A DNA stretch of 64,000 nt from Polyangiales bacterium. Its GTDB lineage: Bacteria > Myxococcota_A > Polyangia > Polyangiales > JBDIVX01. Below, piece after piece: positions 19,616 through 58,794 of this stretch. The notes beneath the pieces were generated by a model, which was given only the letters and a program-made list of their open reading frames with translations, was not told the origin of the DNA and searched no databases. Position 1 is the stretch's first letter. Every line of letters starts with the position of its first letter. A program made the position numbers and the translations under genes. The DNA lies in assembly GCA_039794305.1 (NCBI GenBank), contig JBDIVX010000011.1:2885-66884 (forward strand), in the 5' to 3' direction.

Positions 19616-19661
19616 CGGCTCCTCGGGCTTCGCCCGATCGGGGCCCTTCCGCTTGCGCCGC

Positions 19662-20054
19662 TCAGATGCCGAGCGCCCTCTTAACCTTCTCAAGGAGCTC
19701 CTGCTGCTTGAAGGGTTTGGTGACGTAGTGTCGGGCGCCGGCGTTGATGCCGGCGATGACGTCCTTCGGTGTGTTCTTCGCGGTCAGCATCAGGACGGGG
19801 ATGCGCGCGAGCCGCGGGTGGCTCTTCATCCGCTTCGACAGGGTGAGGCCGTCCATCTCGGGCATCATCAGATCGGTCACGACCAGATCGAAGCTCGGGT
19901 CCCTCTCGAGGTGCGAGAGCGCCTCGACGCCGTCCGCGGCCGGTACGACCTGGCCCAGTGAGACCAGCATGTGCTGGAGCATGCGCCGGACGTCCGCGTC
20001 GTCCTCCACGACGAGGATCCGCTTGGGCACCGCGCTGTGCGGGACGGGGCTCAC
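19662..20054 (-). CDS. Single-domain response regulator receiver protein
   Basis: 'RILVVEDD', phosphoacceptor 'VVTDLMMPEMDG', 'MLTA', 'YVTKPF'. Confidence 0.92.
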   Translation of the reverse strand: MSPVPHSAVPKRILVVEDDADVRRMLQHMLVSLGQVVPAADGVEALSHLERDPSFDLVVTDLMMPEMDGLTLSKRMKSHPRLARIPVLMLTAKNTPKDVIAGINAGARHYVTKPFKQQELLEKVKRALGI

Positions 20055-40854: not shown

Positions 40855-43800
40855 TTACAGGTCGATGGCGGTTTCGCGCGCCTCGGCCTGGTCCACCGCG
40901 CGGCAGAAGCGCGCGAAGACAGCATACTCCGTGGGAGCCACTCTCATCACGGGCAATCGTACCGATCGTCGCAGCGTGAACGCCTGCCCCTCGCGCTCAC
41001 CCTCCATCCGGAAGCGGGCACCGTTCGGCCCGGAGAGCTCCACCGCGCGGGGCGGTTCGGGGACGGACACGCTCGCGGGCAGGTGCACCGTGACCCGCGC
41101 CTCCACGTCGATCGGGGGCGCCACGAGCTGCGTCGTGGTGCGCTGACCCAAGCCGGCGTAGGTCGGGGCGAGGTGGGTCGGGAACAGGCCGGGCACGATC
41201 CACCGTTCGCCCTGCCTGCGCCCGAGACTGCGGACCTCGAAGGCGTACTCGAGCACGAGCGGGCGCTCCGGATCCTCGCGGCCGACGATGCGCAGCCGCG
41301 TCATCTCGGCGCCCGGGACGAGGCGCGCCACGTACGCCTCACCGAACCTCGACTCCAGCGTGGCGTCGGGCACCCCTTCGAGGTCGTTGCGCCAGCCGAT
41401 GGCGTTCGCGCCGTGGAAGGTCTCGACTACCTCGACGACGGCCGACCCGTCGTCGCGCAAGTGCGCGTCGACCTCGACCTCGCGCCGATCGGCGTCGTCA
41501 GCTCCGGCGGGGATGCGGACTCGCGGCGCACCGCGATCGAGGACGACCGCCTCCTGGCCGCGGAGCAGCGGTGGGACGTACGAGAAGGGCGCCCCGCGCT
41601 CGGCCGTCGACAGGAACCGGCCGTCGCCGAGGGCGACGAGCAAGTGCTCGTACGTCTCGCCGTCCGGAAGGAGCGGCCGGTTCGCGTCGGCGGCGGCGCT
41701 CCGCGCGAGGACGAGCTTCGACTGCACGCCCACGAGGCCGAGCATGTAACGGAGCACCCGCGCCCGGTTGCCCGTGCGATCGAAGAGCATGGCGGGCGCG
41801 AGCCCGAAGGCGTCATTGCTCTCCTCGATGTTCGCGAGCACCCACGCGTAGAGGCGACGCGCCTTGGCTTCGTCGCTGCCGTCGATCGCTTCTCCGACGA
41901 CCCGCTCGGCCAAACGGCGCGCGGCCGGGTCGTGCACGTCGCGGTCCGCGAGCGCGTCGAGCAGGCTGTCGACGAAGCGCTCCCACGTCGCGTTCACACC
42001 GACGTTGACCGACGGGATGTACTCGCGGGGAGCGACGCTCATCGGCTCGGGGACCAGCGGGCGGCTCTCTCGGACGCTCCAGCGCAGGACCTGCACGCCG
42101 CCCGGTCCCTCGCGCCGCTCCGTCTCGGGAGCGGGCCCGCGCGGGTCGATCACCGGCTCGACCGACGGCGGGAGCACCAGCACCAGCTCGCTCCGGTCGA
42201 AGGGCGTCTCGAAGCTGCGGAAGAAGAAGCGGTCGCCCAGGTAGCCGCCCGGGAACCCGGCCGGCGGCTCTCCCAGCCGGACGTACTCGTACTCGACGTA
42301 GTCGCCCGGCGCGAGGTTCGGGAGGCTGATCGTGTCCTTGCCCTCGATCGCGTCCGGCTCGATGCGCCGGCCGGTGTCGCCCTTGATCGTGTGGAGCTTC
42401 AAGATCCGCGCCCCCTCGGGCAGCCGGAGCTCACCCCGCTCGTCGAGCGCCTCCTCGCTCTGCACGCGCCAGATGTTGTGCGTGAGCTCGAGCGTCGAGC
42501 CGTCCTCGAAGAGACGCACGACCGTGTAGTCGAGGACGAGCACCTCGGGCTCCTCGTACGTGCGCCCCGAGGCCTCGAGCTCCCGCAGGACCTCCGCTCC
42601 GTCGAGCCGGTACGGCGTGAGATCGAAGTCACCCGTGATGGAGCGCCTGCTCAGGCGAAGCTCCGCGAGGGCGGTGGGCTCGGCCGCGACCGCCTCCGCG
42701 AGGACGCGCGCTGCCTGCTCGGGCTCGCCGCGGGCGAGCTGTCGGTCCGCCCGCGCGATCGGAGTGAGCACGCTCTGTGGCTGATCGGCGGCGATCTCGG
42801 CGAGCAGCCGATCGATGATCGCCTCCTCGCCGCGCCCGCGCGCGATCTCGAGCCGGCCGACGAGGATGCCGTGGCGGCTCTGCGGCGGCTCGAACGTCGC
42901 GAGGCGGTCGAGCTCCTCGCTCGCGCCGTCCCAGTCCCGGCGCCGGAGGAGCTGCTCGTAGAGCGCGCTCGTGCGCGCGTCGCAGGCGACGAGCTGCCGC
43001 GCGAGCCGCTCCATCTCGGCCGTCTGGCTGCGCCGCTCGGCCTGCGAGAGCGCACCGCGGATCGGGCGGCAGGCTCCGGGAGCGATCTCGCGAGCCCGCG
43101 CGATCTGACGCTCGGCCTGGCCGTACCAACCGCGCCCGAGGTACAGGTCCGTGAGCGAGAGAGGAACGGCGACGATCTCGGGCCAGCGCGCGGCGGCCTC
43201 GCGCAGGCGCTCGATCGCCTGGAGCGCGCGCCCGTCGGCCGCGTCGAGGCGTGCGAGCTGGACCGGCGGATACCAGCTCTCAGGGTCGCGGCGGGCGGCG
43301 ACTCGAAGAAGGCGCCGCGCCTCGTCGCGGCTCATGTCGCCGGGCCGGTGCGGATCGCCGAGCGCGATGCCGCCGCGGAGCTGGAGCACGGCGGACGATG
43401 CGTCGTCGTCGGCGGTGTGGTGCCGGAGCGCCTCGCGGGCCGCCACGGTGTCGCCCCGCGACATCGCCACCGTCGCCGCCAGATAGGAAGCGAAGGGGCC
43501 GTCGGCCTCCGGGCGGCCCGGCACGTCGGGGGCGGGCAGGAGCGAGCCGACCAGGACGGGGTTCGGGTGGCCGGTCGCGATCTGCACCGTCACGACGTGG
43601 CGGCCGGGATCGAGCTCCACGCGGTGGAACGTGACGCGCGGTGTCGGCTCGACGCGCATGTCCAGCCGGGCGACGAGGCGTCCGTCGACGAAGAGCTTGG
43701 CCGCGTTCGGCGTCTCGAGTCGCAGCACCTGCGGCCCGCCACGTTCGACCGTGACGACGCCTTGCGCGAAGGTCGTCCCGCCTGCCGATACCGGTCCTCC

Positions 43801-44544
43801 CCCGAGGTGGACCGAGCAGCCGCGCGTCCCGTACGTGCGCGTATCCCGCGTGCCGCGGCCGGGGCCGAGGTCGTAACGGTCCTCGAGCGGGCGGCCTGGC
43901 GCGACCGCGAAGTCGCCGTCGAAGTCGAGCAGCGTGCGCGGACCGAAGGGCCCGGCGACGCGCCACTCGGAGATGCATCCCGCGTCGGCCCCGATGCGCG
44001 CGACGGCGTCCGTGTCGCCCCGGCGGAACGCGAGCTCGACGAGCGTCTCGGCGATCCGGTAGCGCGCCGCCGCACCGAGGTGGCCGGGGTCACGGGCAAG
44101 GGTCTCGAGCCGGGGCCGCACGGTCTCCGACCAGCGCGGCGCCGCATCTGCGAGCTCGTCGACCGCGACGAGCGCCGACTCGGCGACGTACGACGCGCCT
44201 GTGCGGGGCGAACGCTGCGCCGCTTCGACCGCGTCGAGGTAACGCGCGAGGGCCTCGCCCGGGTACCCGTGCAGGTTCCGCTCGAGCGCCGCCGCGAACA
44301 GGAGCCGCTCGTCGTCCGGCGCGAGCGCGAGAGCGCGCGCGACCTGTGCCTCGACGCGCGCCGCGTCACCTCCCTCCATCAGCAGCTCTGCGAGCGCCAG
44401 CTCGCGCTGGGCGTCCGGATCGCGGGGGTTCTGCGCGGCGTGCGCGCGCAGGTCCTCGATGGTCGGGGTGGACGGCAGAGCCGCCCGGGAGCCGCACGCC
44501 CCAAGGGCGAGCGCGACGAAGACGTGGACGACCAGCGCCCTCAT
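40855..44544 (-). CDS. TPR + DUF3857 + transglutaminase-like lipoprotein lacking the catalytic Cys
   Basis: Lipobox 'LGAC', 'WRVAGPF', TPRs, 'LPNLAPGDYVEYEY'. 'RTGNRARVL' sits at the position of G-D-C in the paralogue. Confidence 0.8.
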   Translation of the reverse strand: MRALVVHVFVALALGACGSRAALPSTPTIEDLRAHAAQNPRDPDAQRELALAELLMEGGDAARVEAQVARALALAPDDERLLFAAALERNLHGYPGEALARYLDAVEAAQRSPRTGASYVAESALVAVDELADAAPRWSETVRPRLETLARDPGHLGAAARYRIAETLVELAFRRGDTDAVARIGADAGCISEWRVAGPFGPRTLLDFDGDFAVAPGRPLEDRYDLGPGRGTRDTRTYGTRGCSVHLGGGPVSAGGTTFAQGVVTVERGGPQVLRLETPNAAKLFVDGRLVARLDMRVEPTPRVTFHRVELDPGRHVVTVQIATGHPNPVLVGSLLPAPDVPGRPEADGPFASYLAATVAMSRGDTVAAREALRHHTADDDASSAVLQLRGGIALGDPHRPGDMSRDEARRLLRVAARRDPESWYPPVQLARLDAADGRALQAIERLREAAARWPEIVAVPLSLTDLYLGRGWYGQAERQIARAREIAPGACRPIRGALSQAERRSQTAEMERLARQLVACDARTSALYEQLLRRRDWDGASEELDRLATFEPPQSRHGILVGRLEIARGRGEEAIIDRLLAEIAADQPQSVLTPIARADRQLARGEPEQAARVLAEAVAAEPTALAELRLSRRSITGDFDLTPYRLDGAEVLRELEASGRTYEEPEVLVLDYTVVRLFEDGSTLELTHNIWRVQSEEALDERGELRLPEGARILKLHTIKGDTGRRIEPDAIEGKDTISLPNLAPGDYVEYEYVRLGEPPAGFPGGYLGDRFFFRSFETPFDRSELVLVLPPSVEPVIDPRGPAPETERREGPGGVQVLRWSVRESRPLVPEPMSVAPREYIPSVNVGVNATWERFVDSLLDALADRDVHDPAARRLAERVVGEAIDGSDEAKARRLYAWVLANIEESNDAFGLAPAMLFDRTGNRARVLRYMLGLVGVQSKLVLARSAAADANRPLLPDGETYEHLLVALGDGRFLSTAERGAPFSYVPPLLRGQEAVVLDRGAPRVRIPAGADDADRREVEVDAHLRDDGSAVVEVVETFHGANAIGWRNDLEGVPDATLESRFGEAYVARLVPGAEMTRLRIVGREDPERPLVLEYAFEVRSLGRRQGERWIVPGLFPTHLAPTYAGLGQRTTTQLVAPPIDVEARVTVHLPASVSVPEPPRAVELSGPNGARFRMEGEREGQAFTLRRSVRLPVMRVAPTEYAVFARFCRAVDQAEARETAIDL

Positions 44545-47500
44545 CGGTCGGTCTCCGGCGCGAGCACGATCTGCTGTCGGAGGATGGCGTCGGCACGCTC
44601 CACCCACTGGCGGAACGCGGGGTAGCGATCGGGCGGGACGCGGTCGGCCCGGAGCTCGAGCTCGGTGCGCGTTCGGATCTGCCGTCCGTCGTTCTCCACG
44701 CGCATGCGCAGCAAGCCGAACTCGCTCTCCGCCTCACCTCCGTCGGGGAGCACCGCGGCACGGTGCCCGGAGGGCACGTGCACCGTCCGCTCTTCCACGT
44801 AGGCGCTGGTGCTGCCGAGCTCGAGCGGGTAGCGGCGCGCCGCACGAGGGGCGAGCCCACGCAAGAGATCCTCGAGCACCGTCGGCGGGACGCGCAACCC
44901 GCTTCCGTCGCGGCGGGCGAGCTGCGGCACGCGCGCCCGGTACTCCACCTCGATCGGCGACTCGAGGTCCTCGAGGTTCTGCATGGTCTGGGACTCGAGG
45001 ACGAGCCCCGGGAAGGTGGCGCGGAGCGCGCGCTCGAGGCGGTCGTGGCGGGTACCGCCCGACTGATAGACGTTCCGGTAGCGCGGCGCCTCGGCGCCCA
45101 CGATGCGCTCGGCGACCTCCACCTCGGCGGAGCCGTCGGCCGCGAGCCGGACATCCATCGAGCGCGTGCGCCGGTTGTGGTCGGGCGAGAGCACCGGAGT
45201 GCGGGTGAGCCGCGCGTCCTCGGGCCCGACGACGAGGACGGTCACCCCCTGGTCCATGGCCGGCAGCTCGGTCGTCCCGCTGTGCTCGGCCGTCCCGTCG
45301 AGGTAGAGATCGAGCTCGGGGACGTAGGCGATCGCGTGGTCGAAGACCGCGAGCGACGCCGGCAGATCGTCGATGGAGCCGTTGCGACGCGTACGCAAGA
45401 GGACGATGCGCGCATCGATCCCCGCCTCGCGGAACATCGTGTACAGGAGCGACGCCTTGTCCTTGCAGTCGCCGAAACCCCGCTGGACGATCAGCGGCAC
45501 GCGGTACGGCTTGTAGCCGTGGATGCCGAACTCGAGGCCCACGTACCGGGTGTTGCGCACGACCCACTCGTGGATCCGCTGCACCTTGGTGCGGAGGTCG
45601 GGCGCGTCGGCCACGAGCTCCCGCACGACGCTGCGCAGGTGATCGTCGGCCTGGAGCTGGTCCTGGACGAGCCCCCACCACCAGCGCCCGACGTCCTCCC
45701 ACGTCCGATAGGTCGACACGTGGAGGTACGGCGCGACCTCGGTCATGCCGGGCATTCCCTGCTCGCTCCGGATCGCCGGCACGTCCTCGGCGACGAAGTG
45801 GTGCACCTGCGTGTCGCCTCGCTCGGTCCGCTCGCGACGAAGCCCCTCGAGGGCGGGCTCGTTGAAGTAGAGCTGACGCGACTTCGGCGCGATGAGGACG
45901 TAGTCGAGGCGCTCGATGGGCGAGAATCCCTGGAGGAACGTCAGGTCTCCGTAGTAGTCGGCGAAGAGGTTGCGGTGCGCGACGTCGTCGACGCGGTACT
46001 GGATCTCGACCGTGTCGCCGGGCTCGAGGCTGGGGAACACGACCACGAGCGCGCGCGTGTCGTAGTAGATGCGGTACCAGGGCTCGCCGAGCTGCTGCTC
46101 GAAGGTCTCGGTGGCCTCGAGCACGCGTCCGTCCGCGCGGTACACCCGCGCCTGGCGGACGTCGACGCGCTGGGCATCGGGATCGAACTGGATGGAGTGG
46201 GTGCGCCATTGCCGGGCGCCCTCGTCGTCGTGGACCTGCACCGCGAGCTGCTTGAAGCTCGATCCGAGACCGTTTTGGTAGACGGTGTTGACGGTCAGGT
46301 CCTCGAGCACCGTGACCGGGTAGCCGGAGCGCTCGCTCCTGCGCGCGAGCAGCTCGCGTGGCGCGACCGCGTAAGCCTCGTCAGGGCGCTGCTCGGGCTC
46401 GATCTGCTCGAGCAGCTCCCGGGTGTCGGCGTCCTGCGGCCGGAGCGCGAGCGCCTCGCGGAGCGTGGCCGCGGCGGCGTCGCGCCGGCCGAGGCGGAGC
46501 AACAGGCGCCCGTGCGCGGCGGCCAGCGATGCCTCCTCGGGCGCCACGGCGCGTGCCCGGACGAGCGCCTCGAGCGCCGCGTCGTCATCGCCGATGCCCT
46601 CTTGGATCGCAGCCGCGTAGAGCGCGTTCTGGGCGCTCCCCGGAAGCAGCTCATCGAGCGCCGCGAGGTGCTCCCGCACCACGTCTTCGTCGCCGCGCCG
46701 GAGCGCATCGACGATCAGCGCCCGCCGGCTCGACACGTCGTCGTGGCGCGCAGCGACGGCTTCACGGCGGAGCTCGACCACGCGATCGGCCCGGGCCGCG
46801 GCGTCTGCGGCGAGCGCGCGCTGCTCGATCCACGCGGGGGCGCCCGGCGCGACCGCCGAGGCGTCGTCCACGACGCGCATCGCGCTCTCGGGGAAGTCCA
46901 GGTCCCGGAGGATGGCCGCGCGCAGGACCGCCGCCTGCATCGCGACCACGCCGCCTGGCGGGATCCGGTCGAGCACCGCGAGCGCCTCCACGGGATCGGG
47001 CCCGGTCGCGCGGACGCGCGCGTGTAGAAGGAGCGCGTCGGGGTCGGTCGGTGCGATCTCGATCGCGCGCGTGGCGAAGCGCTGCACCTCCCCGCGCTCG
47101 GCCGCGAGGGCCGCGGCGAGGGCGAGCCGCTGCACGATCGGATCCTGATCGGCGGCGCGCGCGGCGAGCTGGCGCGCCCGGTGCTCGGCCGGGTCGTCGG
47201 CGCCCGTCCAGGCGAGGAAGCGCGCCAGGTCGAAGAGCGCGCCCGCGCTCGGCCGCGAGCCGCCCGCCGCCTGCTCGAGGCTCGCGAGGTCGGTCCGCGG
47301 CGGACGCGGCAGCCGAACCGCGGCGTGGCCGGCGGTGACGTCCCGGTGCGCGCTCGCGTCGGCGCGAACGCCGCGCGCGGGTCCGCCCTGCGGATCGGCC
47401 ACGCGGAGGAAGAACCCCCAGGTGGTCTCCGCGACGCACGCCTTGACGAGGACCCGATTCCAACCCGCGTGCGCGCCCACGACCGCGACGTGCCGGTCCG

Positions 47501-48209
47501 GGTCGGGCTGGCGAGTCACCTCGTCGGAGAGGACCTGCTCGCCGTTCCACCACACCTTGACCGCGCCGCCGTTGCCGACCCACAGCCCGAGCGGCTGGGC
47601 GCGTTCGCTGTGCACGAACGTCTCGGCGTACCCGCACACGTTCGCGTTCGGTCGGAGCACCGCGTCGAGGTCGACGTAGCCGTAGTGCGAGACGTCCGGG
47701 TAGGCACGCCAGGCGACCGAGCGCTCGCGGCCCGGGAAACGCGCGTCGGCGTCCCAGGGACCGAGGCGATCGGACTCCACGGCGGTCTCCCGGTCGAAGC
47801 CCTGCTTGCCCTCGTTGTCGAAGGGACCGACGACGCGCCACGAACGGACGTACCCGAGCTCGTCGACGAGCCGGCGCGAGGCGTCCAGGTCTCCCGTGCG
47901 GAGCCGCGCGCGCGAGAGCAGCGCGCCCGCGTAGGCACGCCGCGCGGGCGACAGCCGACGGTCGGCGGCGAGGCGCTCGAGCTCCGCGGCCGTGGCCGAC
48001 GGCGTCGCCCAGTCCCAGTCACGCCACATCTCGAGCAGGGGCAGGATGCCCCTCGCCGAGCGCCCCTGGCGCACGGCCTCCTGTGCGCGCTCCCGCTGGC
48101 GCGCGTCGTACGGGTTGTCGGCGGCGGCGAGGGCCGGCGTGCCGGCGGAGACGGCCAGGGCCACGAGAACCGCAAAGGCCTGCAATTTCCGGAGGTGGAG
48201 GCGGGTCAT
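44541..48209 (-). CDS. TPR + DUF3857 + transglutaminase-like (Cys-His-Asp) exported protein
   Basis: Signal peptide, 'WRVVGPFDNEG', TPRs, 'FPSLEPGDTVEIQY', 'RYVGLEFG', 'GDCKDK', 'FDHAIAY', 'LDGT'. Confidence 0.88.
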   Translation of the reverse strand: MTRLHLRKLQAFAVLVALAVSAGTPALAAADNPYDARQRERAQEAVRQGRSARGILPLLEMWRDWDWATPSATAAELERLAADRRLSPARRAYAGALLSRARLRTGDLDASRRLVDELGYVRSWRVVGPFDNEGKQGFDRETAVESDRLGPWDADARFPGRERSVAWRAYPDVSHYGYVDLDAVLRPNANVCGYAETFVHSERAQPLGLWVGNGGAVKVWWNGEQVLSDEVTRQPDPDRHVAVVGAHAGWNRVLVKACVAETTWGFFLRVADPQGGPARGVRADASAHRDVTAGHAAVRLPRPPRTDLASLEQAAGGSRPSAGALFDLARFLAWTGADDPAEHRARQLAARAADQDPIVQRLALAAALAAERGEVQRFATRAIEIAPTDPDALLLHARVRATGPDPVEALAVLDRIPPGGVVAMQAAVLRAAILRDLDFPESAMRVVDDASAVAPGAPAWIEQRALAADAAARADRVVELRREAVAARHDDVSSRRALIVDALRRGDEDVVREHLAALDELLPGSAQNALYAAAIQEGIGDDDAALEALVRARAVAPEEASLAAAHGRLLLRLGRRDAAAATLREALALRPQDADTRELLEQIEPEQRPDEAYAVAPRELLARRSERSGYPVTVLEDLTVNTVYQNGLGSSFKQLAVQVHDDEGARQWRTHSIQFDPDAQRVDVRQARVYRADGRVLEATETFEQQLGEPWYRIYYDTRALVVVFPSLEPGDTVEIQYRVDDVAHRNLFADYYGDLTFLQGFSPIERLDYVLIAPKSRQLYFNEPALEGLRRERTERGDTQVHHFVAEDVPAIRSEQGMPGMTEVAPYLHVSTYRTWEDVGRWWWGLVQDQLQADDHLRSVVRELVADAPDLRTKVQRIHEWVVRNTRYVGLEFGIHGYKPYRVPLIVQRGFGDCKDKASLLYTMFREAGIDARIVLLRTRRNGSIDDLPASLAVFDHAIAYVPELDLYLDGTAEHSGTTELPAMDQGVTVLVVGPEDARLTRTPVLSPDHNRRTRSMDVRLAADGSAEVEVAERIVGAEAPRYRNVYQSGGTRHDRLERALRATFPGLVLESQTMQNLEDLESPIEVEYRARVPQLARRDGSGLRVPPTVLEDLLRGLAPRAARRYPLELGSTSAYVEERTVHVPSGHRAAVLPDGGEAESEFGLLRMRVENDGRQIRTRTELELRADRVPPDRYPAFRQWVERADAILRQQIVLAPETDR

Positions 48210-48332
48210 GAAGAGGAGCGGCAGGCTACCGGCGCGCGGATTGCTGGACAAGCGGGGCCCCCGCTTTGTTCCCGAGCGTTCGGACGAGCACGCTTCCGGA
48301 CCCGGGGACGAGCGCTGCTATATTCGCGCGCC

Positions 48333-50784: not shown

Positions 50785-50942
50785 CGCGGTGATCCAAGCA
50801 CACCGACCGCCGGACGTCACGCCTCGACGACCGCGCCGTCGCCCCTCCGTGGCGATGTACCGCAGCCATCGGCCCGGGGGGGGGCCGAGAGCCGAGGGCG
50901 CGCCTGCCGGGTCACCGTGGCCCGTGATACCTTTCGCAGCCC

Positions 50943-52454
50943 GTGCTCGAGCGAGCTGCACTGCACCAGACGCGCTTTCGGACGCCGGGGGTCTCCCCCG
51001 ACGCGCGCGGCGTCGTGCTCGGGCACCGGGGCGTGGTGCTGTTCCCGTCGCTCGACCGCGTGGTCGCGTTCCTGCGCGCGTACGGCGACGAGGGGTCGCT
51101 CGACGAGCTCCTTCCGTCGCTCTCGATCCGGCGGCTGGTCACCCCGCTCAAGACACGCGAGATCATGCTGTCGGTGCAGGCGGAGTCGAGCTACCGGATG
51201 GACCGGATCGCGGGCGTGGCGAAGCTCGCGGGCGGCCTGGTCTTCACCGGCACCTCGCGGCATTTCGTGAAGTACCGCGACGCCGAGTCCCCGCTCGGCT
51301 ACGACGTCCAGCAGCTCCTCGACGAGCGCGCCGACGTCGTCCTCTACCACGACACCTTCCGGCAGGCATACTCGTACGAGCGCGAGCTCCCCTTCCGCGA
51401 CCTCGTCTTCAAGCTCGCGCCGTTCCGCATCCCGCACGGTGAGCGGGAGCTTCCGCGGCGCCTGTTCGCGACGGCCGAGCCCGGCATCGGGGGTGCTCTC
51501 GTCAGGTACCTCTTCCGGTGGCGTGTGGCCGCGCGCGCCGCCCTCGCCGAGTGGCCGAGCCGCTCGGCCTTCGAGGACGCTCCGCGCCGGCTCTACGTCT
51601 TCGACATGAACGAGGTGCCGCAGCGCATGGTCCAGCTCATGGCACAGCTCCCGGGCGTCCACGTCTTCGAGCCGCTCGGCAAGACGTTCGCGGTCGAGCT
51701 CGGCTACCGTCACCCCATCGCGCTCGAGTCGTGCGCCAGCCTCTTCGACGACGACACGCTCCACCTCTTCCGCGGGGACGGTGAAGTGGAGCTCGTCCAG
51801 CCCCTGCCGCCCTTCGCGCCGGTGCGCTCGCTCGTACGCGCCAACGTCTCGGTCGAAGAGACCGATCTGCCGCCGTCCGGGCGCGGCGTCGACGCCGACC
51901 TCGGCCTCTCGCTCCCGCTCGAGCTCGCCCCGAGCACCGACCCGTGGCGCGCCGTGGTGGCGACGGTCGTGCCGCTCGCGCAGCGACAGTGGCTCGCGCG
52001 CCTGCTCTACGCGCTGCCGCCGAACACGCTGGCGTCGCTCCGGATCGCGATCGGCACCGAGAACGTCTATCTGATCGATCCGTCGGGCATCGAGGGCGTG
52101 CCGCTCGGCACGTTCTACTCCGAGGTGGCGCCTCGGATCTTCGTCCCGGCCGGCCTGGCGATCGTGCCCGCCGTGTCACCGGCGGTGCTCACGGAGCTCG
52201 TCCGCGACCGCGGCGACGGGTACGTCTTCTTCGAGCCCGGCCGAGGCGCGCCGCAGGTGGTCCCCGCGTCGGCGTTCGGGACGGTTCCCCGGCGCGTCAT
52301 CCGCGAAGTGGCGGGCACGCCCGTCAGCGCGGACCGCCCGGACGACGACGAGCCTGAGCTGCCGCTGCTCCAGTACGACGAGGCGCGGCGGTTTCCGATG
52401 TGGGGCGTGCCGGGCAAGGAGCTCCCCGAGCGGGAGAAGGAGCCCGGCGAGTGA
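50943..52454 (+). CDS. Uncharacterised protein, first gene of the MoxR-vWA operon
   Basis: 503-aa ORF with good codon bias, preceded by TGaTACCTT extended -10. C-terminal 'GVPLGTFY...IFVPAG..IVPAV' motif. Confidence 0.75.
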   Translation: MLERAALHQTRFRTPGVSPDARGVVLGHRGVVLFPSLDRVVAFLRAYGDEGSLDELLPSLSIRRLVTPLKTREIMLSVQAESSYRMDRIAGVAKLAGGLVFTGTSRHFVKYRDAESPLGYDVQQLLDERADVVLYHDTFRQAYSYERELPFRDLVFKLAPFRIPHGERELPRRLFATAEPGIGGALVRYLFRWRVAARAALAEWPSRSAFEDAPRRLYVFDMNEVPQRMVQLMAQLPGVHVFEPLGKTFAVELGYRHPIALESCASLFDDDTLHLFRGDGEVELVQPLPPFAPVRSLVRANVSVEETDLPPSGRGVDADLGLSLPLELAPSTDPWRAVVATVVPLAQRQWLARLLYALPPNTLASLRIAIGTENVYLIDPSGIEGVPLGTFYSEVAPRIFVPAGLAIVPAVSPAVLTELVRDRGDGYVFFEPGRGAPQVVPASAFGTVPRRVIREVAGTPVSADRPDDDEPELPLLQYDEARRFPMWGVPGKELPEREKEPGE

Positions 52455-53602
52455 GCGGTGCCGGCGAGATCCAGGCGCGCTACGACGCCTTCGCGCGCGA
52501 GTTCCTCCGTCCACTGCTCACGGGCGGCGTGGTCGTCGCGGGCCGGCCGCTGTCCCCCGGGATGCTGGACTGCTTCGCCCTGTCACGGCCGGCCGATCCC
52601 GAGGTCGACGCCGCGATCTACGACGCGTTGCACGCGGCCGGCAGCGACATCGCCCCGGTGAGGGTGATCCCGTGGCCCGACCGTGGACTCGCCGCGGTCG
52701 CGATGGCGTGCCACGACCTCGTCGCCATCACCGACCCGATGCTCGACCGCTGGCTCGCCAGGAAGAGCCGCCCCGAGATGCTGGCGTGGGTCGACTGGCT
52801 CCTCGCGGAGGCCGGTCCCCCCCGCACCCGCGGCGCCGCTCTGGCGCGGCACGCGATCGTCGCCCGGACGCTCGAGGTCAGGCGCGAGGACGTCGTCGTG
52901 CGGAACTGGGCCTACACCTACCGCTTCTTCGGCCGTCCGGTCCCGCCTCGCGTCGTCGCCATGCCGAAGCTACGGATGGTGCGGCAGGACCGATCGACGC
53001 AGCACATCGCCGAGCTGTGGGACGCTCTCGACGCAGACCTGGCCGTCGCGCCGCGCCTCCGGACGCTCCTGTCGCGATCGCCGATCACCGAGCTCCTCCG
53101 CACCGATCGGCTTCCGGACCTGCGCTTCGGCACCGCGATGCTCGCGGTGCTCTCGGACGACCTCGTCCGCGGCGGCGTCGCGCGCGCCCTGGTCTCGCAG
53201 GGCAGTCGGGTGGCCGCTCCCCTCGGGCGGGCGCTCCGCGAGCTCTCCGGGGCGAGCCCTCCCCCGCGCATGCTGTACTACGCGCTCGCGCTCGTGTTCG
53301 AGGTGCACGTGATCGCCGCCCTCGAGGCCCGCGCCGGCGAGCCGCTTCTCTTCGGGCACCCCGCGGACGCCGATTCGCGCCTGTTCGCGGCGATTCTGCC
53401 CGCCATGCTCGGCGCGCCGGACGACCTCGGGGCGCTGCTCGACTTCGATCCGGACGACCTCGCGCGCCTCCGGATGTCCGCGCCCGAGCTCGACCGGGCC
53501 GCGGGCGACGACGCCTCGCGTTACGCGGTGGAGTTGATCGATCAGGCCATGCCGCCGCGGCTCGACCACGAGCGCGACGAGTACCAGAAGGTGGGGACGT
53601 GA
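52451..53602 (+). CDS. Uncharacterised helical protein of the MoxR-vWA operon
   Basis: GTGA overlaps at both ends, 383 aa. Confidence 0.75.
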   Translation: MSGAGEIQARYDAFAREFLRPLLTGGVVVAGRPLSPGMLDCFALSRPADPEVDAAIYDALHAAGSDIAPVRVIPWPDRGLAAVAMACHDLVAITDPMLDRWLARKSRPEMLAWVDWLLAEAGPPRTRGAALARHAIVARTLEVRREDVVVRNWAYTYRFFGRPVPPRVVAMPKLRMVRQDRSTQHIAELWDALDADLAVAPRLRTLLSRSPITELLRTDRLPDLRFGTAMLAVLSDDLVRGGVARALVSQGSRVAAPLGRALRELSGASPPPRMLYYALALVFEVHVIAALEARAGEPLLFGHPADADSRLFAAILPAMLGAPDDLGALLDFDPDDLARLRMSAPELDRAAGDDASRYAVELIDQAMPPRLDHERDEYQKVGT

Positions 53603-54771
53603 CGAAAGCGACGGAGACGGCGCAGCGCCTTCAGCAGGTGGCGCGCGCGCTCGAGACGACCTTCCTCGGGAAGAGCGAAGTGGTGAGGCTCATGCTGATC
53701 GCGGCCATCGCGGGCGAGCACATGGTGCTCGTGGGGCCGCCGGGGACCGCGAAGAGCGCGCTGGTGCGGCTCTTCTCGAAGCTCGTGCAGGCGCGCTACT
53801 TCGAGTACCTGCTCACGCGGTTCACCGAGCCGAACGAGCTCTTCGGCCCGATCGACATCCAGCGCTTCCGCGAGGGGCGGTACGAGCGGCGGATGGAGGG
53901 CATGCTGCCCGAGGCCGAGATCGCCTTCCTCGACGAGGTGTTCAAGGCGAACAGCGCCATCTTGAACTCGCTCCTCAGCGTGCTGAACGAGCGCGTCTAC
54001 ACGGTCGGCGGAGCACGCCACCGCGTGCCGCTCATCAGCGCCTTCGGCGCGTCGAACGAGGTCCCGAACGACGAAGACCTGATGGCCGTCTTCGACCGGT
54101 TCCTCCTTCGGGTGCACAGCGACAACCTCGACAGCTACCACTTCCACGACCTGCTCTTGAAGGGCATCGACCACGAGGTCAGCAAGATCTCCGGCGCGTA
54201 CGACCAGATCCGTCCGGTCCTGAGCGCGCAGGACCTGCACGCGCTGCACGCCGGCTTCGCGGAGCGGATGCGGTTCACCGAGGAGCTCCTGGCGGCGTAC
54301 AAGGGTCTGGTCTTCCAGATCCGCTCCGAAGGCGTCTCGCTCAGCGACCGCCGCGCCATCAAGCTGCTCAAGCTGTTTGCCGCGAGCGCGCTCCTCGACG
54401 GCCGTTCGACGGCCGACCCGAGCGACTTCTTCGTCCTGCGACACACCTGGAACAACCTCGACCAGGCCGAGATCCTCGAGGGCATCGTCGGCCCGGTGCT
54501 CGAGGCGTGGTACCGGGAGCACCCGGAGGCGCGACGCTTCGGCGCCGCCGACGTCGGGATGGACGCGCTCATCGAGGAGGTGAACCGGATCCGCGAGCTG
54601 CTCACCTCCGACCGTCCCATGAGCGACATCCAGCTCTTCAGCCACCTCAAGGCCCTGAACGAGATCAAGGCCGCGCTCCAGGCCATCGGCACGCAGCCGG
54701 CCCGCGAGGCGATCGGGCGGGTCGACCAGCTCCTCGGTCACGTGTTCCAGAGCGGCAAGTTCGCACAGTAG
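53599..54771 (+). CDS. MoxR-family AAA+ ATPase (RavA-like)
   Basis: Walker A 'GPPGTAKS', 'FEYLLTRFTEPNELFGP', Walker B 'FLDEVFKANSAILNSLL', 'ASNE', 'FDRFLLR', 'SDRR'. Confidence 0.93.
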   Translation: MTKATETAQRLQQVARALETTFLGKSEVVRLMLIAAIAGEHMVLVGPPGTAKSALVRLFSKLVQARYFEYLLTRFTEPNELFGPIDIQRFREGRYERRMEGMLPEAEIAFLDEVFKANSAILNSLLSVLNERVYTVGGARHRVPLISAFGASNEVPNDEDLMAVFDRFLLRVHSDNLDSYHFHDLLLKGIDHEVSKISGAYDQIRPVLSAQDLHALHAGFAERMRFTEELLAAYKGLVFQIRSEGVSLSDRRAIKLLKLFAASALLDGRSTADPSDFFVLRHTWNNLDQAEILEGIVGPVLEAWYREHPEARRFGAADVGMDALIEEVNRIRELLTSDRPMSDIQLFSHLKALNEIKAALQAIGTQPAREAIGRVDQLLGHVFQSGKFAQ

Positions 54772-54779
54772 GAGGCCGG

Positions 54780-56297
54780 GTGCCGATCGGGAGCCACCTC
54801 AGGAACACGGAGGCGGGGCGGGACATCGGCTCGCTCGCGCTGAGCGTGGTGCGCACGGACAACCCCATGGTCGAGCTGCGGGCGGCGCAGTGGCGGAACG
54901 CGCTCGGCCGCGTCGGGCTTCCGGTGCCCTTGTGGGCGGTGCACGACCTCGGGATGACGGCCGTGCTCGACCCCGGCTCGGTCCCCATCCAGCAGCGCAC
55001 GGCGGCGCTCGGTGGGCTGCCTCCGGAGCACGCTTCGGCGCTCGGGGTCTGGGTCGAGACGATCTCCGAGATCGCGGCGAGCGAGGTCATGGAGAAGGCG
55101 CGGTCCTGGCGGCTCTCGGACGAGCTCATCGCCGTCCTGCTCCTGCGCGTGCTCGGCCCGGTGTGGGAGCGCCACCTCGGCCCCGGCCGCCGGCCGGCCG
55201 CGCCCGTGCTCCCCCTCGATCCGGAGGTGTACCGTGACCTCGAGGCCGATCTCGGATCGCTCTTCGCGGCGAGCGACCGCTCCGACGACCTCGCCTTCCT
55301 GCAGCACCTCGCGCGCGAGCGCCTGCGGCTCCTCATCGCCATCGAGCAGGTGGACCTCGACACGCTCCGGCTCGTCGGGATGTTCGGCGCGGAGGCGGGC
55401 GCAGCGAACGCGCTGTCGATGCTGGATCTGTTGAACGTCTTCCAGAGCCCGGAGGCGAACGACGTCGTGAACTTCTCGCTCGATCTCCTCCCGAGCGTGC
55501 TCGAAACGAAACGCGCGAGCGGCCAGCAGATGTTCAGCATCGACGGCTACTCGGGCGTCGAGCGGCGCGGCACGATCGACTCGCTCATGCTGTCGGAGCT
55601 GGCCTACGACGCGGACCTCTTCGACAGGCGCTGGGTCGAGAACGAGCTCTTCTACTACGCCCACGAGAAGCAGCACGAGGAGGACCGGCGCCTCCACTAC
55701 ATCTGCGTGGACGCCAGCGCGTCGATGCGCGGCCAGCGGTCGGTCTTCGCGCGCGGGCTCGCGCTGACGCTCATCAAGAAGCTCACGCTGCGCGGCGAGG
55801 ACGTCTACATGCGGTTCTTCGACTCGCGGCTGTATGAGGCGCAGCACACGCGTCCCGGCCGGAGCGAGCACGGCGGCATCAGCGTCCCCTACGTCCTGTG
55901 CTTCAAGGGCGAGCACGGCCGGAACTACGCCAAGGTGTTCGGGATGCTGGCGAACGACCTCGAGCGCCTGGCGCGGCGGGAGCGGCGCACGCCCATCCTG
56001 TACGTGATCACCCATGCCGAGTGCCACGTGCCCCTCGACACGATCGAGCGGCTGCGAACCCTCGCGAGGCTCTACGGGGTGTTCATGCTGCCCTCGCAAG
56101 GGCAGCTCGAGCTCGACTACCTGCACCGGCTGCACACGGTGCAGGTGGTCGACGAGAACGCGCTCGGCCAGCGGGACGAGCGCGCCCGGCGCGCGCTCGA
56201 CATCGTCGAGGACGTGGCCCGAGAGGAGGAGGAAGCGGCGCCGGTCGAGCCCGACGGGCGGGACCAGCTCAGGGAGCGCGAGTCGTGGATCGGATGA
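54780..56297 (+). CDS. vWA-domain protein (ViaA-like partner of MoxR)
   Basis: GGAGG RBS + GTG. 'SLMLSELAY...F.RRWVENELFYY', MIDAS 'VDASASM', 'YVIT'. Confidence 0.85.
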   Translation: MPIGSHLRNTEAGRDIGSLALSVVRTDNPMVELRAAQWRNALGRVGLPVPLWAVHDLGMTAVLDPGSVPIQQRTAALGGLPPEHASALGVWVETISEIAASEVMEKARSWRLSDELIAVLLLRVLGPVWERHLGPGRRPAAPVLPLDPEVYRDLEADLGSLFAASDRSDDLAFLQHLARERLRLLIAIEQVDLDTLRLVGMFGAEAGAANALSMLDLLNVFQSPEANDVVNFSLDLLPSVLETKRASGQQMFSIDGYSGVERRGTIDSLMLSELAYDADLFDRRWVENELFYYAHEKQHEEDRRLHYICVDASASMRGQRSVFARGLALTLIKKLTLRGEDVYMRFFDSRLYEAQHTRPGRSEHGGISVPYVLCFKGEHGRNYAKVFGMLANDLERLARRERRTPILYVITHAECHVPLDTIERLRTLARLYGVFMLPSQGQLELDYLHRLHTVQVVDENALGQRDERARRALDIVEDVAREEEEAAPVEPDGRDQLRERESWIG

Positions 56298-56333
56298 GGG
56301 TCGGGCGGCGGCGAAGGCCGGGGGTCGAGGATC

Positions 56334-58118
56334 GTGGCGGCGATCGATAAGCGCGAAGCGTATCGGAAGGCGGCGCAGGCGCTCGAGGGCGGACGGCCGG
56401 CGCAGGCCCTCGCGCACCTTTGGTCGCTCGTCGATCGGTCCCACCTGATCGACGAGGAGCTCGCGAGCTACCTGCGGATGCTCTCGAAGGCGTACGTCAT
56501 GCTCGATCGCCGCCGCGCGGCCGCGACCATCGACCTCTTCCTCGGCGACGTCGACGCGGCGTTCCGGCTGTCGGAGGGCGAGCCGACCGATCAGGCGCGC
56601 TGCGCGGTCGCCGCCGACCGACCCGTTCACGCGGCGCGGTACTTCGAGCAGGCCGGCTGGCTCGGCCACGCGGCCATCCGGCTCGAGACCGCGGGCGACG
56701 ACCGCGCCGCGCGGGTCCTCTGGGAGCGCCTCGCGGACGACGGCCGGCTCCGGGACGACCTCTACACGCAGGGCCTCGTGCGCTTCAACCTGGGGCGCGC
56801 GTGCGAGCGCCTCGGCGATCGGGCGGCGGCGCGCCGGGCGACGGTCCAGAGCATGCACCTCCTCGAGGCGGCCGCCGACGGCTTCGAGACTCGGGGCCAG
56901 CGCGAGCGCGCCTTCGACTGCTACCAGGTGCTGCTCACCCTCGGGAGGGCCGGCGCCTTCGAGAACCTCGCCGAGGGCTACCTCAACTGCATCCGCATCC
57001 TGAAGGAGGACAACCTCAAGTACTACGTCCTCCAGTACTACGAGGACTTCCAGGAGCTGGCCCTCGAAGCCGGCGAGCTGCACGCCGCGGCGACTCTCTT
57101 CCGCGAGGCGGCCGAGTTCGCCCGGCGCCACAACCTCCCCTACGAGCGCCACTACCGATGGCGCGCGGCCGAGACGCACTCGGCGGCGGCCAGCGAGACC
57201 CTGCGGGACGGCGGGAGCCTGGAGCTCGCGGAGAACGCCTTCGCGGCGGCGATCGACGCCTACAACTCCCTCGGCGCCCACTCGAAGGTCTGCGAGATCT
57301 ACTCGACGCTGGCCGAGCTGCCGCTCGCCGACAAGCGGCGCGCGCGGTACGAGCGGCTTCGTTCGCGGCTCGCGGAGGAGCCCGACGAGGCCGGCCAGAC
57401 GGTCGCCTTCCCCGACTACCTCCGGATGGGCACGGCGTACCCCGAGATCTGGCGCCTCGACGTGATCGAGTGGGAGCAGGGGGGAGACGCGGCCGAGACG
57501 ATGGCCGAGGTCCTGCAGGACCCGAAGTGGCCCGACTTCACGCGGCGGCGCGCGCTCCTGTGCCGGCTGCACCAGCTCGGAAGCGGCGAGGCCGTGCCGT
57601 CACCCGAGACGCTCGAGGGGCTGGCGGTGCACCTCGGACGCGTCGAGATCTACGCCTCCCTCGCGCCGCTCGAGCACATGGTCACCCACGGCGAGCCGCG
57701 CGTGCGCGCCGCGGTCCTGCGCGCCGTGCGCCAGCTCTTCTTCAAGCGGTCCTTCGTCCTCGTCATCCGTGGGCTCGGCGACGACGACCCGGAGGTGCGC
57801 AAGCAGGCGCTCGCCGCGGTCTCCGCCTTGCACTTCGGGCACGCCTTCGACCCGCTCGCGCGCATCTACCGGGAGTCGGCCGATCCGGCCGTGCGCCGGG
57901 CGGCCCTCGATTCGATCGGCAAGATCCCGACCATCGAAGCCTCCGAGATGCTCATCGACGTGCTCCGCCACGGCGACGGCGCCGAGCGCGACCTCGCGCG
58001 CCAGCTCCTCGCCCGCGGCGACTACCCCGAGCTCGGCAGCCTCCTCCGCCGCGCCGCCGCCCACGAAACCGGCGCAGCCCGCGAGGCCATGGAGCAGATC
58101 CTCCAACTGCGCGGCTGA
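56334..58118 (+). CDS. TPR-like solenoid + C-terminal HEAT repeat protein
   Basis: 'AARYFEQAG', 'AATLFREAA'. HEAT 'DPEVRKQALAAV', 'DPAVRRAALDSIGKI'. No signal peptide. Confidence 0.8.
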   Translation: MAAIDKREAYRKAAQALEGGRPAQALAHLWSLVDRSHLIDEELASYLRMLSKAYVMLDRRRAAATIDLFLGDVDAAFRLSEGEPTDQARCAVAADRPVHAARYFEQAGWLGHAAIRLETAGDDRAARVLWERLADDGRLRDDLYTQGLVRFNLGRACERLGDRAAARRATVQSMHLLEAAADGFETRGQRERAFDCYQVLLTLGRAGAFENLAEGYLNCIRILKEDNLKYYVLQYYEDFQELALEAGELHAAATLFREAAEFARRHNLPYERHYRWRAAETHSAAASETLRDGGSLELAENAFAAAIDAYNSLGAHSKVCEIYSTLAELPLADKRRARYERLRSRLAEEPDEAGQTVAFPDYLRMGTAYPEIWRLDVIEWEQGGDAAETMAEVLQDPKWPDFTRRRALLCRLHQLGSGEAVPSPETLEGLAVHLGRVEIYASLAPLEHMVTHGEPRVRAAVLRAVRQLFFKRSFVLVIRGLGDDDPEVRKQALAAVSALHFGHAFDPLARIYRESADPAVRRAALDSIGKIPTIEASEMLIDVLRHGDGAERDLARQLLARGDYPELGSLLRRAAAHETGAAREAMEQILQLRG

Positions 58119-58131
58119 CCCCACCGGCGTC

Positions 58132-58228
58132 GACTTGCATTGGGGACAGGTCCCAATGCAAGTCCGTCCACCGACCGGAGAACGACTGCCTCCCCGACTT
58201 GCATTGGGACCTGTCCCCAATGCAAGTC
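58132..58228. repeat. Inverted pair of 33-bp palindromic units (REP/REPIN-like)
   Basis: GACTTGCATTGGG-GACAGGT-CCCAATGCAAGTC (58132-58164) and its exact reverse complement (58196-58228), 31-bp spacer, between convergent genes. Confidence 0.9.
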
Positions 58229-58232
58229 CGGA

Positions 58233-58745
58233 TCACTCCCAGCGGTGTTGGTCGCGCTCTAGGGCTTCGAGGTACTCGGCTTCGGTGGGCGGGTTCTCGG
58301 GGGCGGGGGGGATCTCGATGATCTCGACGCGGGTGCGGTCGCGGTCCATCGGCAGGATCGACACGTCCATGTGGACGACGCCGCCGCGGACCCCGCGCGG
58401 GGCGGCGTTGCGGTAGACGGCGCCGTCGCCCATGCGGTCCACCTGACCGGTGAGCAGCCTTTGCCCGAAGTACGACTGGAGCTTCCGGAGCGGCGCGCGC
58501 GAGTGGTAGACGTGCGAGCGCTCCTCGTCGAGCACCGTCTCGAGGCCTCGCGGCAACGCGAGCCCCGCGACCCGCTGGTCCGACTCGAGCAGCTCCCCGT
58601 CGGGGCCGAAGAGCTGCCGTTCGGCGCGCTGGCGGGCAGCCTCCTCGGCCTCGTCCGCCGCGCTCGGACGAGCCTCCCCGCGGGCACCGTCGTCCCCGCA
58701 CCCGAGGAGCCCGGCGAGGAGGAGCGCGATGGAGACCGTCCTCAT
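58233..58745 (-). CDS. Hypothetical lipoprotein
   Basis: Lipobox 'LLGC'. TAGGAT -10 lies 7 nt upstream of the ATG. Confidence 0.7.
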   Translation of the reverse strand: MRTVSIALLLAGLLGCGDDGARGEARPSAADEAEEAARQRAERQLFGPDGELLESDQRVAGLALPRGLETVLDEERSHVYHSRAPLRKLQSYFGQRLLTGQVDRMGDGAVYRNAAPRGVRGGVVHMDVSILPMDRDRTRVEIIEIPPAPENPPTEAEYLEALERDQHRWE

Positions 58746-58794
58746 GCCGCGCATCCTACCCGCGGGCACGCGCTCACGCACGCCCGCGCCCGCG

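Follow-up and report, generated by a model that had tools for sequence, protein, structure and literature searches.

What does a compact operon built around an AAA+ ATPase of the MoxR type plus a von Willebrand factor A (vWA) protein do when no recognizable effector accompanies it? This question is raised by positions 50,943 to 58,118 of a 64,000-nucleotide stretch of DNA, the whole of which was analyzed and is called the window below (contig JBDIVX010000011.1 of assembly GCA_039794305.1, positions 2,885 to 66,884), from a Polyangiales bacterium of the class Polyangia (genome G000). Its five genes encode two proteins of no evident family (U1 and U2), the ATPase, the vWA partner, and a TPR-like/HEAT solenoid protein (TPR-HEAT). 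An earlier note, made from the sequence alone, had proposed a variant of the "ternary" MoxR-vWA conflict systems, with the solenoid as adaptor or sensor for anti-phage sensing or complex disassembly. Our results suggest that the operon is a lineage-core element that probably works together with two further genes, encoding a TPR-FHA protein and a TPR-Ser/Thr kinase. The reading that we prefer, at a probability of about 0.45, is a lineage-core, phosphorylation-gated cytoplasmic MoxR-vWA signaling switch for stress or threat, made up of at least seven proteins.

Organization and encoded proteins of the operon

A re-check of the sequence confirmed five open reading frames (ORFs) in the same orientation (Table 1), with GTGA overlaps between genes 1 and 2 and genes 2 and 3, followed by gaps of 8 and 36 bp. 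The coordinates and lengths reported in the earlier note were thus reproduced, as were its positions for the Walker A motif GPPGTAKS (53734-53757) and for the DASAS motif (55710-55724) of the metal ion-dependent adhesion site (MIDAS). The five genes have a GC content of 0.67-0.74 (0.93-0.96 at third codon positions), compared with 0.721 for the genome, and their codon use and GC content are like those of the rest of the 8.2-Mb sequence. No clear transmembrane segment was found in the five proteins (maximum 19-residue hydropathy 1.2-1.9), in agreement with the cytoplasmic location claimed for all of them; the top hydropathy stretch, residues 399-417 of U1, forms strand and helix in its folded model.

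The ATPase belongs to the bpMoxR family (PF20030, E 1.9e-78, 262.7 bits against a cut-off of 27), and its P-loop GPPGTAKS, Walker B FLDE, sensor-1, and arginine finger DRF are invariant in 35 class-wide sequences. Its earlier description as RavA-like held only in part: among NCBIfam models, RavA fits the ATPase core best, but the score against the equivalog model was 193 bits with a cut-off of 681 (residues 1-297, model positions 1-298 of 498), whereas the absence of a LARA-sized insert was confirmed (390 aa against 498 model positions).

The vWA protein consists of a helical N-terminal region, a conserved linker, and the vWA domain, and ends about 30 residues after the latter. It scored 17.8 bits with the Pfam family ivWA, under the cut-off of 35, and its residues 15-307, comprising the helical N-terminus and linker, align to a canonical FtsH system's ivWA protein with an hhalign probability of 95.5. 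With the ViaA equivalog model it scored 13.4 bits against a cut-off of 500, and the DASAS motif opens a metal site that is only half canonical. When the MIDAS positions were set by alignment to 23 vWA domains of canonical type encoded in G000, D311, S313, and S315 were found to be kept, while R381 occupies the position of the MIDAS threonine and H412 that of the second aspartate (DxSxS..R..H). R381 is present in 41 of 41 vWA sequences and H412 in 40 of 41, with C415 and H416 conserved as well; because R381 and H412 are near-invariant, we read the site as remodeled and not decayed. No sequence relatives of the vWA profile were found in the PDB.

TPR-HEAT ends in HEAT repeats (HEAT_2, E 1.4e-11; PDB profile matches to alphaRep/HEAT proteins over about residues 430-588). 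It has a near-constant length, no membrane segment, and no propeller, and the variability of the solenoid is no greater than that of the other components. A possible origin as the split-off tail of an fvmX7 protein was unsupported (probability 3.5).

For the two remaining proteins, the earlier note had suggested a likeness to the fvmX and bpX families, the accessory domains of FtsH-type and beta-propeller-type ternary systems. This likeness was borne out for U1 and only weakly for U2. The AlphaFold2 model of U1 has three alpha/beta domains (predicted local distance difference test, pLDDT, 89.7) and a low-confidence acidic C-terminal tail with a conserved FPxWG motif at its end. U1 has 436 relatives at 50% clustering, and among 95 full-length family members searched with Pfam at E<=0.05, bpX2 was matched by 58, fvmX7 by 30 (best E 1.9e-15), and bpX3 by nine. 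The U1 protein of the window itself had no fvmX7 match in the Pfam search; its residues from about 233 to 450 align to fvmX7 of a canonical FtsH system with an hhalign probability of 95.6 (E 1e-8). Judging from these profiles, U1 is distantly related to fvmX7/bpX2 and carries one more domain at its N-terminus. A three-fold repeat inside U1 was considered and not retained, the secondary-structure pattern being suggestive and the profiles weak (probability 26 between domains 2 and 3, none for domain 1).

U2 is predicted to be mostly helical with one small beta-sheet (pLDDT 94.9; predicted template modeling score, pTM, 0.92), and it is the fastest-evolving component (6.4 times RpoB), without a local spike. 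An fvmX1 match was obtained for one of 72 U2 members (E 0.0019). Additionally, two fvmX1 genes precede MoxR at the same place as U2, and a motif ARSP-T-LL is common to both. The hhalign probability between U2 and fvmX1 was only 2-4, and the profile E value about 5e-4 in a small set, so that U2 may possibly be a remote fvmX1 relative of weak likeness; identity with fvmX6 was ruled out by comparison. Fold searches returned generic ferredoxin-like matches only for U1 (Z<=7.3) and no clear match for U2 (best Z 6.0), every match in an ESM Atlas search was 0.83 or lower, and no PDB sequence relatives of the U2 profile were found. Such missing matches do not prove new folds.

Distribution and inheritance

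Profile hits were counted per genome in a class sample of 161 genomes with a completeness of 90% or more, and MoxR was assessed in the retrieved loci. The vWA protein was matched in 95 genomes, U1 in 94, U2 in 92, and TPR-HEAT in 95, with one copy each; the exceptions are a genome with two copies and some matches that are split. G000 itself has a single copy of each of these four genes and one bpMoxR of this type. Among 41 genomes of the order, vWA and U1 occur in the same 19, with one more marginal U1 match. The families, numbered here with the prefix f, are near-fixed for the system (f28 24/24, f26 22/23, f27 11/12, f94 7/7), empty or nearly so (f80 0/17, f86 0/8, f8 1/9), or mixed (f17 7/11, f84 15/24). 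In a 301-genome phylum sample, full-length orthologues were found in two of roughly 240 genomes outside the class; both sets are samples, in which absence is no proof of absence. The best named vWA relatives are Sandaracinaceae, Polyangiales, and Polyangia records, and in a species-level genome collection 544 of 574 pattern matches encode a vWA relative, that is, at least 544 genomes.

Gene order is kept across the class, yet the operon is often broken. With contig-edge cases dropped, and with one split countable from both sides, adjacency was seen in 86 of 94 scoreable cases for U1-U2, the most tightly linked pair, in 76 of 91 for U2-MoxR, in 60 of 126 for MoxR-vWA, and in 74 of 116 for vWA-TPR-HEAT. 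The inserted genes vary by locus. A stand-alone receiver-domain gene, for example, sits between MoxR and vWA in locus L136 (10099-10476) and also in L128, L141, L144, and L156. Outside the class, locus L125 has the order U1, TPR-HEAT, U2, MoxR, vWA, together with the TPR-FHA/kinase pair in divergent orientation and, downstream, a PilB-like ATPase. Apparent frameshifts in several genes of L013, L020, L059, and L017, which also affect neighbors such as PilY1 in L020, are probably assembly errors rather than pseudogenes.

Gene trees were compared with RpoB for 19-26 genomes, sequences below set length limits being excluded. The strong splits shared with RpoB numbered 11 of 13 for U1, nine of 11 for U2, nine of nine for MoxR, ten of 13 for vWA, and nine of 11 for TPR-HEAT. 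Distance correlations with RpoB were only moderate (0.44-0.77), and some exchange in f27 and f94 is likely because these families are non-monophyletic in several gene trees. These results indicate that the operon is lineage-core and appears to be stably and mostly vertically inherited in one branch of myxobacteria. The earlier note had set strict vertical conservation with a housekeeping client against a conflict role; the vertical part was largely found, and a housekeeping client was not.

The TPR-FHA and kinase partners

We surveyed 662 ORFs within 3 kb of the system genes and clustered them into families. The sole partner recurring across families was a pair of genes transcribed away from U1, the first encoding TPR-FHA and the second a TPR-Ser/Thr kinase. 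This divergent arrangement was seen in 21 of 80 scoreable loci. Most of these come from distant families, and a genome outside the class is among them, so that a pair upstream of U1 may be the ancestral layout. In G000 the pair lies on another contig (Table 1), and TPR-FHA adjoins pilB head-to-head in all eight same-order loci examined.

TPR-FHA was found in 95 of the 161 class genomes, 94 of them in common with vWA. All five profiles used (U1, U2, vWA, TPR-HEAT, and TPR-FHA) matched together in 88 genomes; another 64 genomes had no match to any of them, and nine had matches to only some. TPR-FHA is also co-present in both outside-class genomes with vWA, including G252, and was not found in four outside-class genomes without a full-length orthologue. 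Two controls from the same surroundings did not track the system: PilB (129/161) is encoded in 14 of 17 genomes of f80 and eight of eight of f86, where the system is absent, and in two of 12 of f27, where it is present, and the lipoprotein gene after the kinase is found in 149 of 161 class genomes. From the co-presence in 94 of 95 genomes and the two controls, the unit probably consists of seven genes, namely the five-gene operon, TPR-FHA, and the TPR-Ser/Thr kinase.

The kinase gene follows TPR-FHA in 38 of 40 loci, where it was scored by adjacency. A single clade (support 0.75) unites all 39 adjacent kinases with the kinase of contig C65; among the genome's 147 kinase domains, only one other falls within it. 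The catalytic motifs of the kinase and the FHA residues GR..SxxH are intact. In addition, the N-terminal helical repeats of TPR-HEAT are related to the repeats of TPR-FHA (hhalign probability 80, E 1.4e-5), and both proteins start with a short aromatic/basic stretch (SFWRRVF, SLWRKLLG). Stretches of this kind are typical of membrane-binding amphipathic helices.

The lipoprotein gene mentioned above (L130:9552-10211, L255:6388-7062) is class-core, conserved, and single-copy. Its product is ConA-like with a weak DUF6250 match and no family above cut-off, and the gene often stands right after the system kinase and before a second kinase. It was considered as a sensor and rejected as a specific part on account of its presence in 149 genomes.

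Proposed mechanism

Going by the pairs of MoxR and vWA proteins already known, in which the vWA protein takes hold of a substrate and the ATPase remodels that substrate (PMC7159879), the MoxR hexamer would engage the vWA protein and spend ATP to twist and remodel what the latter holds. A structural analogy is offered by NorQD, where a finger of the vWA protein is described as entering the hexamer pore and rotation as stretching the linker between two leverage points (PMC13036017). U1 and U2 may form a co-translated heterodimer that, with TPR-HEAT, would serve as scaffold or client of the vWA protein. The kinase could then phosphorylate a threonine in the U1-U2/TPR-HEAT/vWA assembly or in itself, TPR-FHA would read the phosphothreonine and dock via its helical repeats, and remodeling would switch the kinase/FHA output on or off. 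Because no toxin, nuclease, or enzyme client is linked, a signal is the simplest candidate for the output; by analogy with the logic of the Esr pathway of Actinomycetota, it would most likely be a cell-wide response to stress or threat and not direct killing.

Of this scheme, the gene set and its co-inheritance, the preserved motifs of the ATPase, the kinase, and the FHA domain, the changed metal site of the vWA protein, and the lack of a linked toxin or enzyme effector are observed. The signaling switch is further supported by single-copy, family-level fixation, by gene trees that mostly match RpoB, by the probable leaderless sigma-70-type start, by the homology that U1, MoxR, and vWA show to components of predicted conflict systems, and by the Esr pathway. 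Several points weigh against it. The links among the seven proteins are predicted from genes, and the neighborhood surveys identified no input signal, substrate, or output gene, nor a phosphatase or extracellular sensor recurring beside the genes. In several families the genes are scattered over the chromosome, leaving adjacency as an ancestral feature only. Losses are common to kin, so the 161 genomes are not independent, and many of the negative genomes are small. The "threat" part of the proposal draws on homology and on an analogy with Esr at the level of domain names, and a few strong splits clash with RpoB (0-2 per gene).

Alternative explanations

The strongest alternative, which we nevertheless hold to be doubtful, is a housekeeping remodeler: the seven proteins would assemble or disassemble one lineage-specific structure in development, motility control, or the envelope, with the kinase setting the time and no role in conflict. 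A single copy, near-fixation in families, mostly vertical inheritance, constant lengths, and the lack of an effector speak for it, as do the neighborhood of TPR-FHA to pilB and, in many close relatives, that of the operon to a PilY1 cluster. However, PilB is not co-distributed with the system, the PilY1 link is not seen in more distant class loci, no client gene recurs, and the parts are most closely related to predicted conflict systems. Metal insertion or the maturation of a respiratory or metabolic enzyme by a chaperone like RavA-ViaA or NorQD, with the His-substituted vWA site tuned to a transition metal, is improbable. Neither metalloenzyme nor respiratory genes recur next to the system, the RavA and ViaA equivalog scores are far under their cut-offs, and the five additional partners (solenoid, kinase, and fvmX-like) are foreign to those systems, although NorQD has the same motor/adaptor architecture (PMC13036017), the histidines and cysteine next to DxSxS are conserved, and the distribution is core-like. 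It is very improbable that the system comprises the five genes only and that the TPR-FHA/kinase pair is an unrelated ancestral neighbor lost in the same lineages. The location of the pair next to pilB in G000 and its order, the clear bystander status of the lipoprotein from the same ancestral neighborhood, and the losses shared by kin would allow this; the co-presence in 94 of 95 genomes, which includes discordances within families (f8, f17, f84), the joint occurrence in both outside-class genomes, and the homologous helical repeats in TPR-FHA and TPR-HEAT argue against it.

The conflict role proposed in the earlier note was examined against the three hallmarks given by Kaur et al. 2020, namely effector displacement or variable architecture, a hypervariable segment, and lateral transfer with patchiness among kin (PMC7159879). 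None of the three was seen: lengths and order are constant, with no exchange of effectors, and inserted genes vary by locus; in the class-wide comparison, entropy is even along each protein; and there is fixation at the family rather than the strain level, with the few splits conflicting with RpoB noted above. Also, none of the five proteins matched a PADLOC model, the GC content is genome-like, and no defense or mobile gene family recurs among the 662 neighboring ORFs. The anti-phage or defense-island reading was thus not borne out, and stand-alone anti-phage defense is unlikely. A scheme in which the solenoid senses an invader protein and MoxR-vWA remodeling triggers containment or cell death has little chance of being correct, even though the bpMoxR, ivWA-like, and fvmX7-like parts are common to predicted conflict systems, in which solenoids are also described as common sensors (PMC7159879). 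Vertical inheritance excludes the usual defense-island reading only; surveillance is compatible with it, because the lineage-wide Esr set of MoxR, vWA, kinase, and FHA is reported to relay threat detection (PMC13622651).

Transcription start and neighboring genes

An extended -10-like element precedes gene 1 (Table 1). Among 89 distinct relatives, 66 have a TAnnnT hexamer ending 4-11 nt before the gene 1 start codon, often with TG just upstream (mean 3.4, maximum 11 in 500 shuffles), and eight have a Shine-Dalgarno (SD)-like motif. TPR-HEAT shows the opposite pattern, with TAnnnT in one of 82 and SD-like motifs in 44 of 82. Since TAnnnT is common and SD-like motifs are rare ahead of gene 1, the comparison supports the leaderless start described earlier, and transcription is probably sigma-70-type and constitutive. 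A strict sigma-70 scan, which demands a -35 box, matched no promoter. The vWA gene has its own TAnnnT hexamer in 22 of 68 cases when split from MoxR and in five of 55 otherwise, kin not being independent, and in G000 the start of TPR-FHA has a TAnnnT hexamer 7 nt upstream. RNA run X1 is uninformative on transcription because its cover is even over the whole 19 kb, on both strands and spacers, as contigs. The palindrome pair after the operon is a possible terminator or small repetitive extragenic palindromic (REP)-type repeat, and probably not system-specific: the genome contains 42 copies of the 13-nt arm and three of the full palindrome.

Table 1. Coordinates of the operon, its associated elements, and nearby genes (positions in the window unless a contig is named)
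Feature	Position	Strand	Description
Gene 1 (U1)	50943..52454	+	503 aa
Gene 2 (U2)	52451..53602	+	383 aa
MoxR AAA+ ATPase (bpMoxR family)	53599..54771	+	390 aa
vWA partner	54780..56297	+	505 aa
TPR-like/HEAT solenoid (TPR-HEAT)	56334..58118	+	594 aa
Putative extended -10-like promoter element TG-n-TACCTT	50925..50933	+	ends 9 nt before gene 1 start; from sequence and comparison
Two inverted copies of 33-nt palindromic element	58132..58228	.	just 3' of last stop codon
TPR-FHA and TPR-Ser/Thr kinase	G000:C65 about 17594-20021 (L233:7595-10022)	-	other contig than operon, head-to-head with pilB
Two large tandem TPR-rich DUF3857/transglutaminase-like genes	40855-48251		2.7 kb upstream of operon
Small lipoprotein-like gene	about 58233-58751		between operon and pilus tip cluster
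Type IV pilus tip cluster (PilY1-like and minor-pilin-like genes)	58795-63970		converging on operon

The PilY1 cluster beside the operon is conserved in closer relatives only. An obligatory link to type IV pili, suggested by adjacency to PilY1, pilB, and a pilT-like gene, was rejected on the distribution of PilB. The transglutaminase-like genes are near the operon only here and in loci L018 and L020.

Comparison with known systems

The gene set is not described in the literature searched, though this did not include source data file 1 for Figure 1 by Kaur et al. 2020, which may list members. Two further MoxR-vWA types, iSTAND2 and TERNS3, were added in 2021 (PMC8195603). We tentatively propose, at clearly less than even odds, that the genes represent an undescribed class-level core pathway of Polyangia-type myxobacteria, in which a conflict motor (bpMoxR-ivWA with fvmX7/fvmX1-like partners), domesticated or still ancestral, is wired to its own Ser/Thr kinase and FHA-solenoid for lasting intracellular surveillance or as a developmental checkpoint in parallel to Esr, possibly being the stock of the FtsH and propeller systems. 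These ternary systems are predicted only, large, and patchy, with accessory domains of no known function. The operon is related to them but compact, single-copy, and lineage-core, and it has a defined kinase/FHA arm. MoxR-vWA remodeling, the fvmX7-like domain, and the His-substituted vWA site thereby become testable with seven soluble proteins. The results also point to a pathway conserved within a branch of the myxobacteria that is large, of ecological importance, and little studied, and they indicate that inheritance in the manner of housekeeping genes is possible for a "conflict" module.

The Esr pathway, as presented in a bioRxiv 2026 report, combines MoxR, vWA, a Ser/Thr kinase, and FHA, and signals threat by threonine phosphorylation (PMC13622651). 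The likeness, an analogy of domain names only, extends to a lineage-wide distribution and to a signaling output in place of a toxin. Unlike our system, Esr is reported to have a secreted filamentous beta-propeller sensor, a transglutaminase, a phosphatase, and a tie to Esx secretion, none of which recurs here. With RavA-ViaA and NorQ-NorD, the operon shares a MoxR hexamer and a vWA partner of N-terminal domain, linker, and vWA; it differs in having no LARA-sized region, scores below the equivalog cut-offs, a non-canonical MIDAS, five additional dedicated proteins, and no linked enzyme client.

Among the nearest known systems are the FtsH-type ternary systems (subsystem 3 of PMC7159879; Pfam fvmX1-7, ivWA, and bpMoxR), which are described from myxobacteria. 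Both they and the operon have a MoxR of the same family with the P-loop GxxxTAKS that Kaur et al. 2020 give for FtsH and propeller systems, and a divergent vWA protein with a helical N-terminal region, and the same linker before the vWA domain; the MIDAS, often degraded in FtsH-type systems, is altered here. U1 has an fvmX7-homologous region, and U2 may be a remote fvmX1. In contrast, the FtsH-type double AAA+ protein is absent from the operon and from the families recurring among the 662 ORFs within 3 kb, an unlinked copy not having been sought in the whole genome, and no NEFF1, radical SAM, ubiquitin-like, or caspase module recurs in the neighborhoods. U1 carries an additional N-terminal domain and lacks a fused solenoid, the TPR-FHA/kinase pair is present, and the system is single-copy and family-core. 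Canonical FtsH-type systems (fvmX6, fvmX5, FtsH, fvmX7, bpMoxR, ivWA) occur as separate loci in module-bearing genomes (L030, L119), as does a bpX5/bpX6-bearing system in a relative carrying the module (L029). Outside the class, L123 and L124 hold a variant with fvmX1, bpMoxR, a short TPR protein, and a U1/fvmX7-like protein; L123 also has a WD40-vWA protein, and FtsH was looked for within the retrieved stretches of these two loci.

The beta-propeller ternary systems (subsystem 4 of PMC7159879; Pfam bpX0-6) likewise have a bpMoxR ATPase, a TPR-containing component, and no conventional effector in their published description, and the U1 family matches bpX2 and bpX3. Here, however, the vWA protein has no propeller, and there is no membrane-spanning variable third component, the solenoid being of near-constant length. 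As the earlier note had observed, FtsH ATPase, propeller, and effector are missing from the operon, and none was seen among the recurring neighbors. Taken together, sequence comparison indicates that the operon shares ancestry with the FtsH and propeller ternary systems and probably works alike at the motor/adaptor level while lacking the defining features of both, which agrees with the earlier view of a distinct variant and makes it an effector-less relative of the two.

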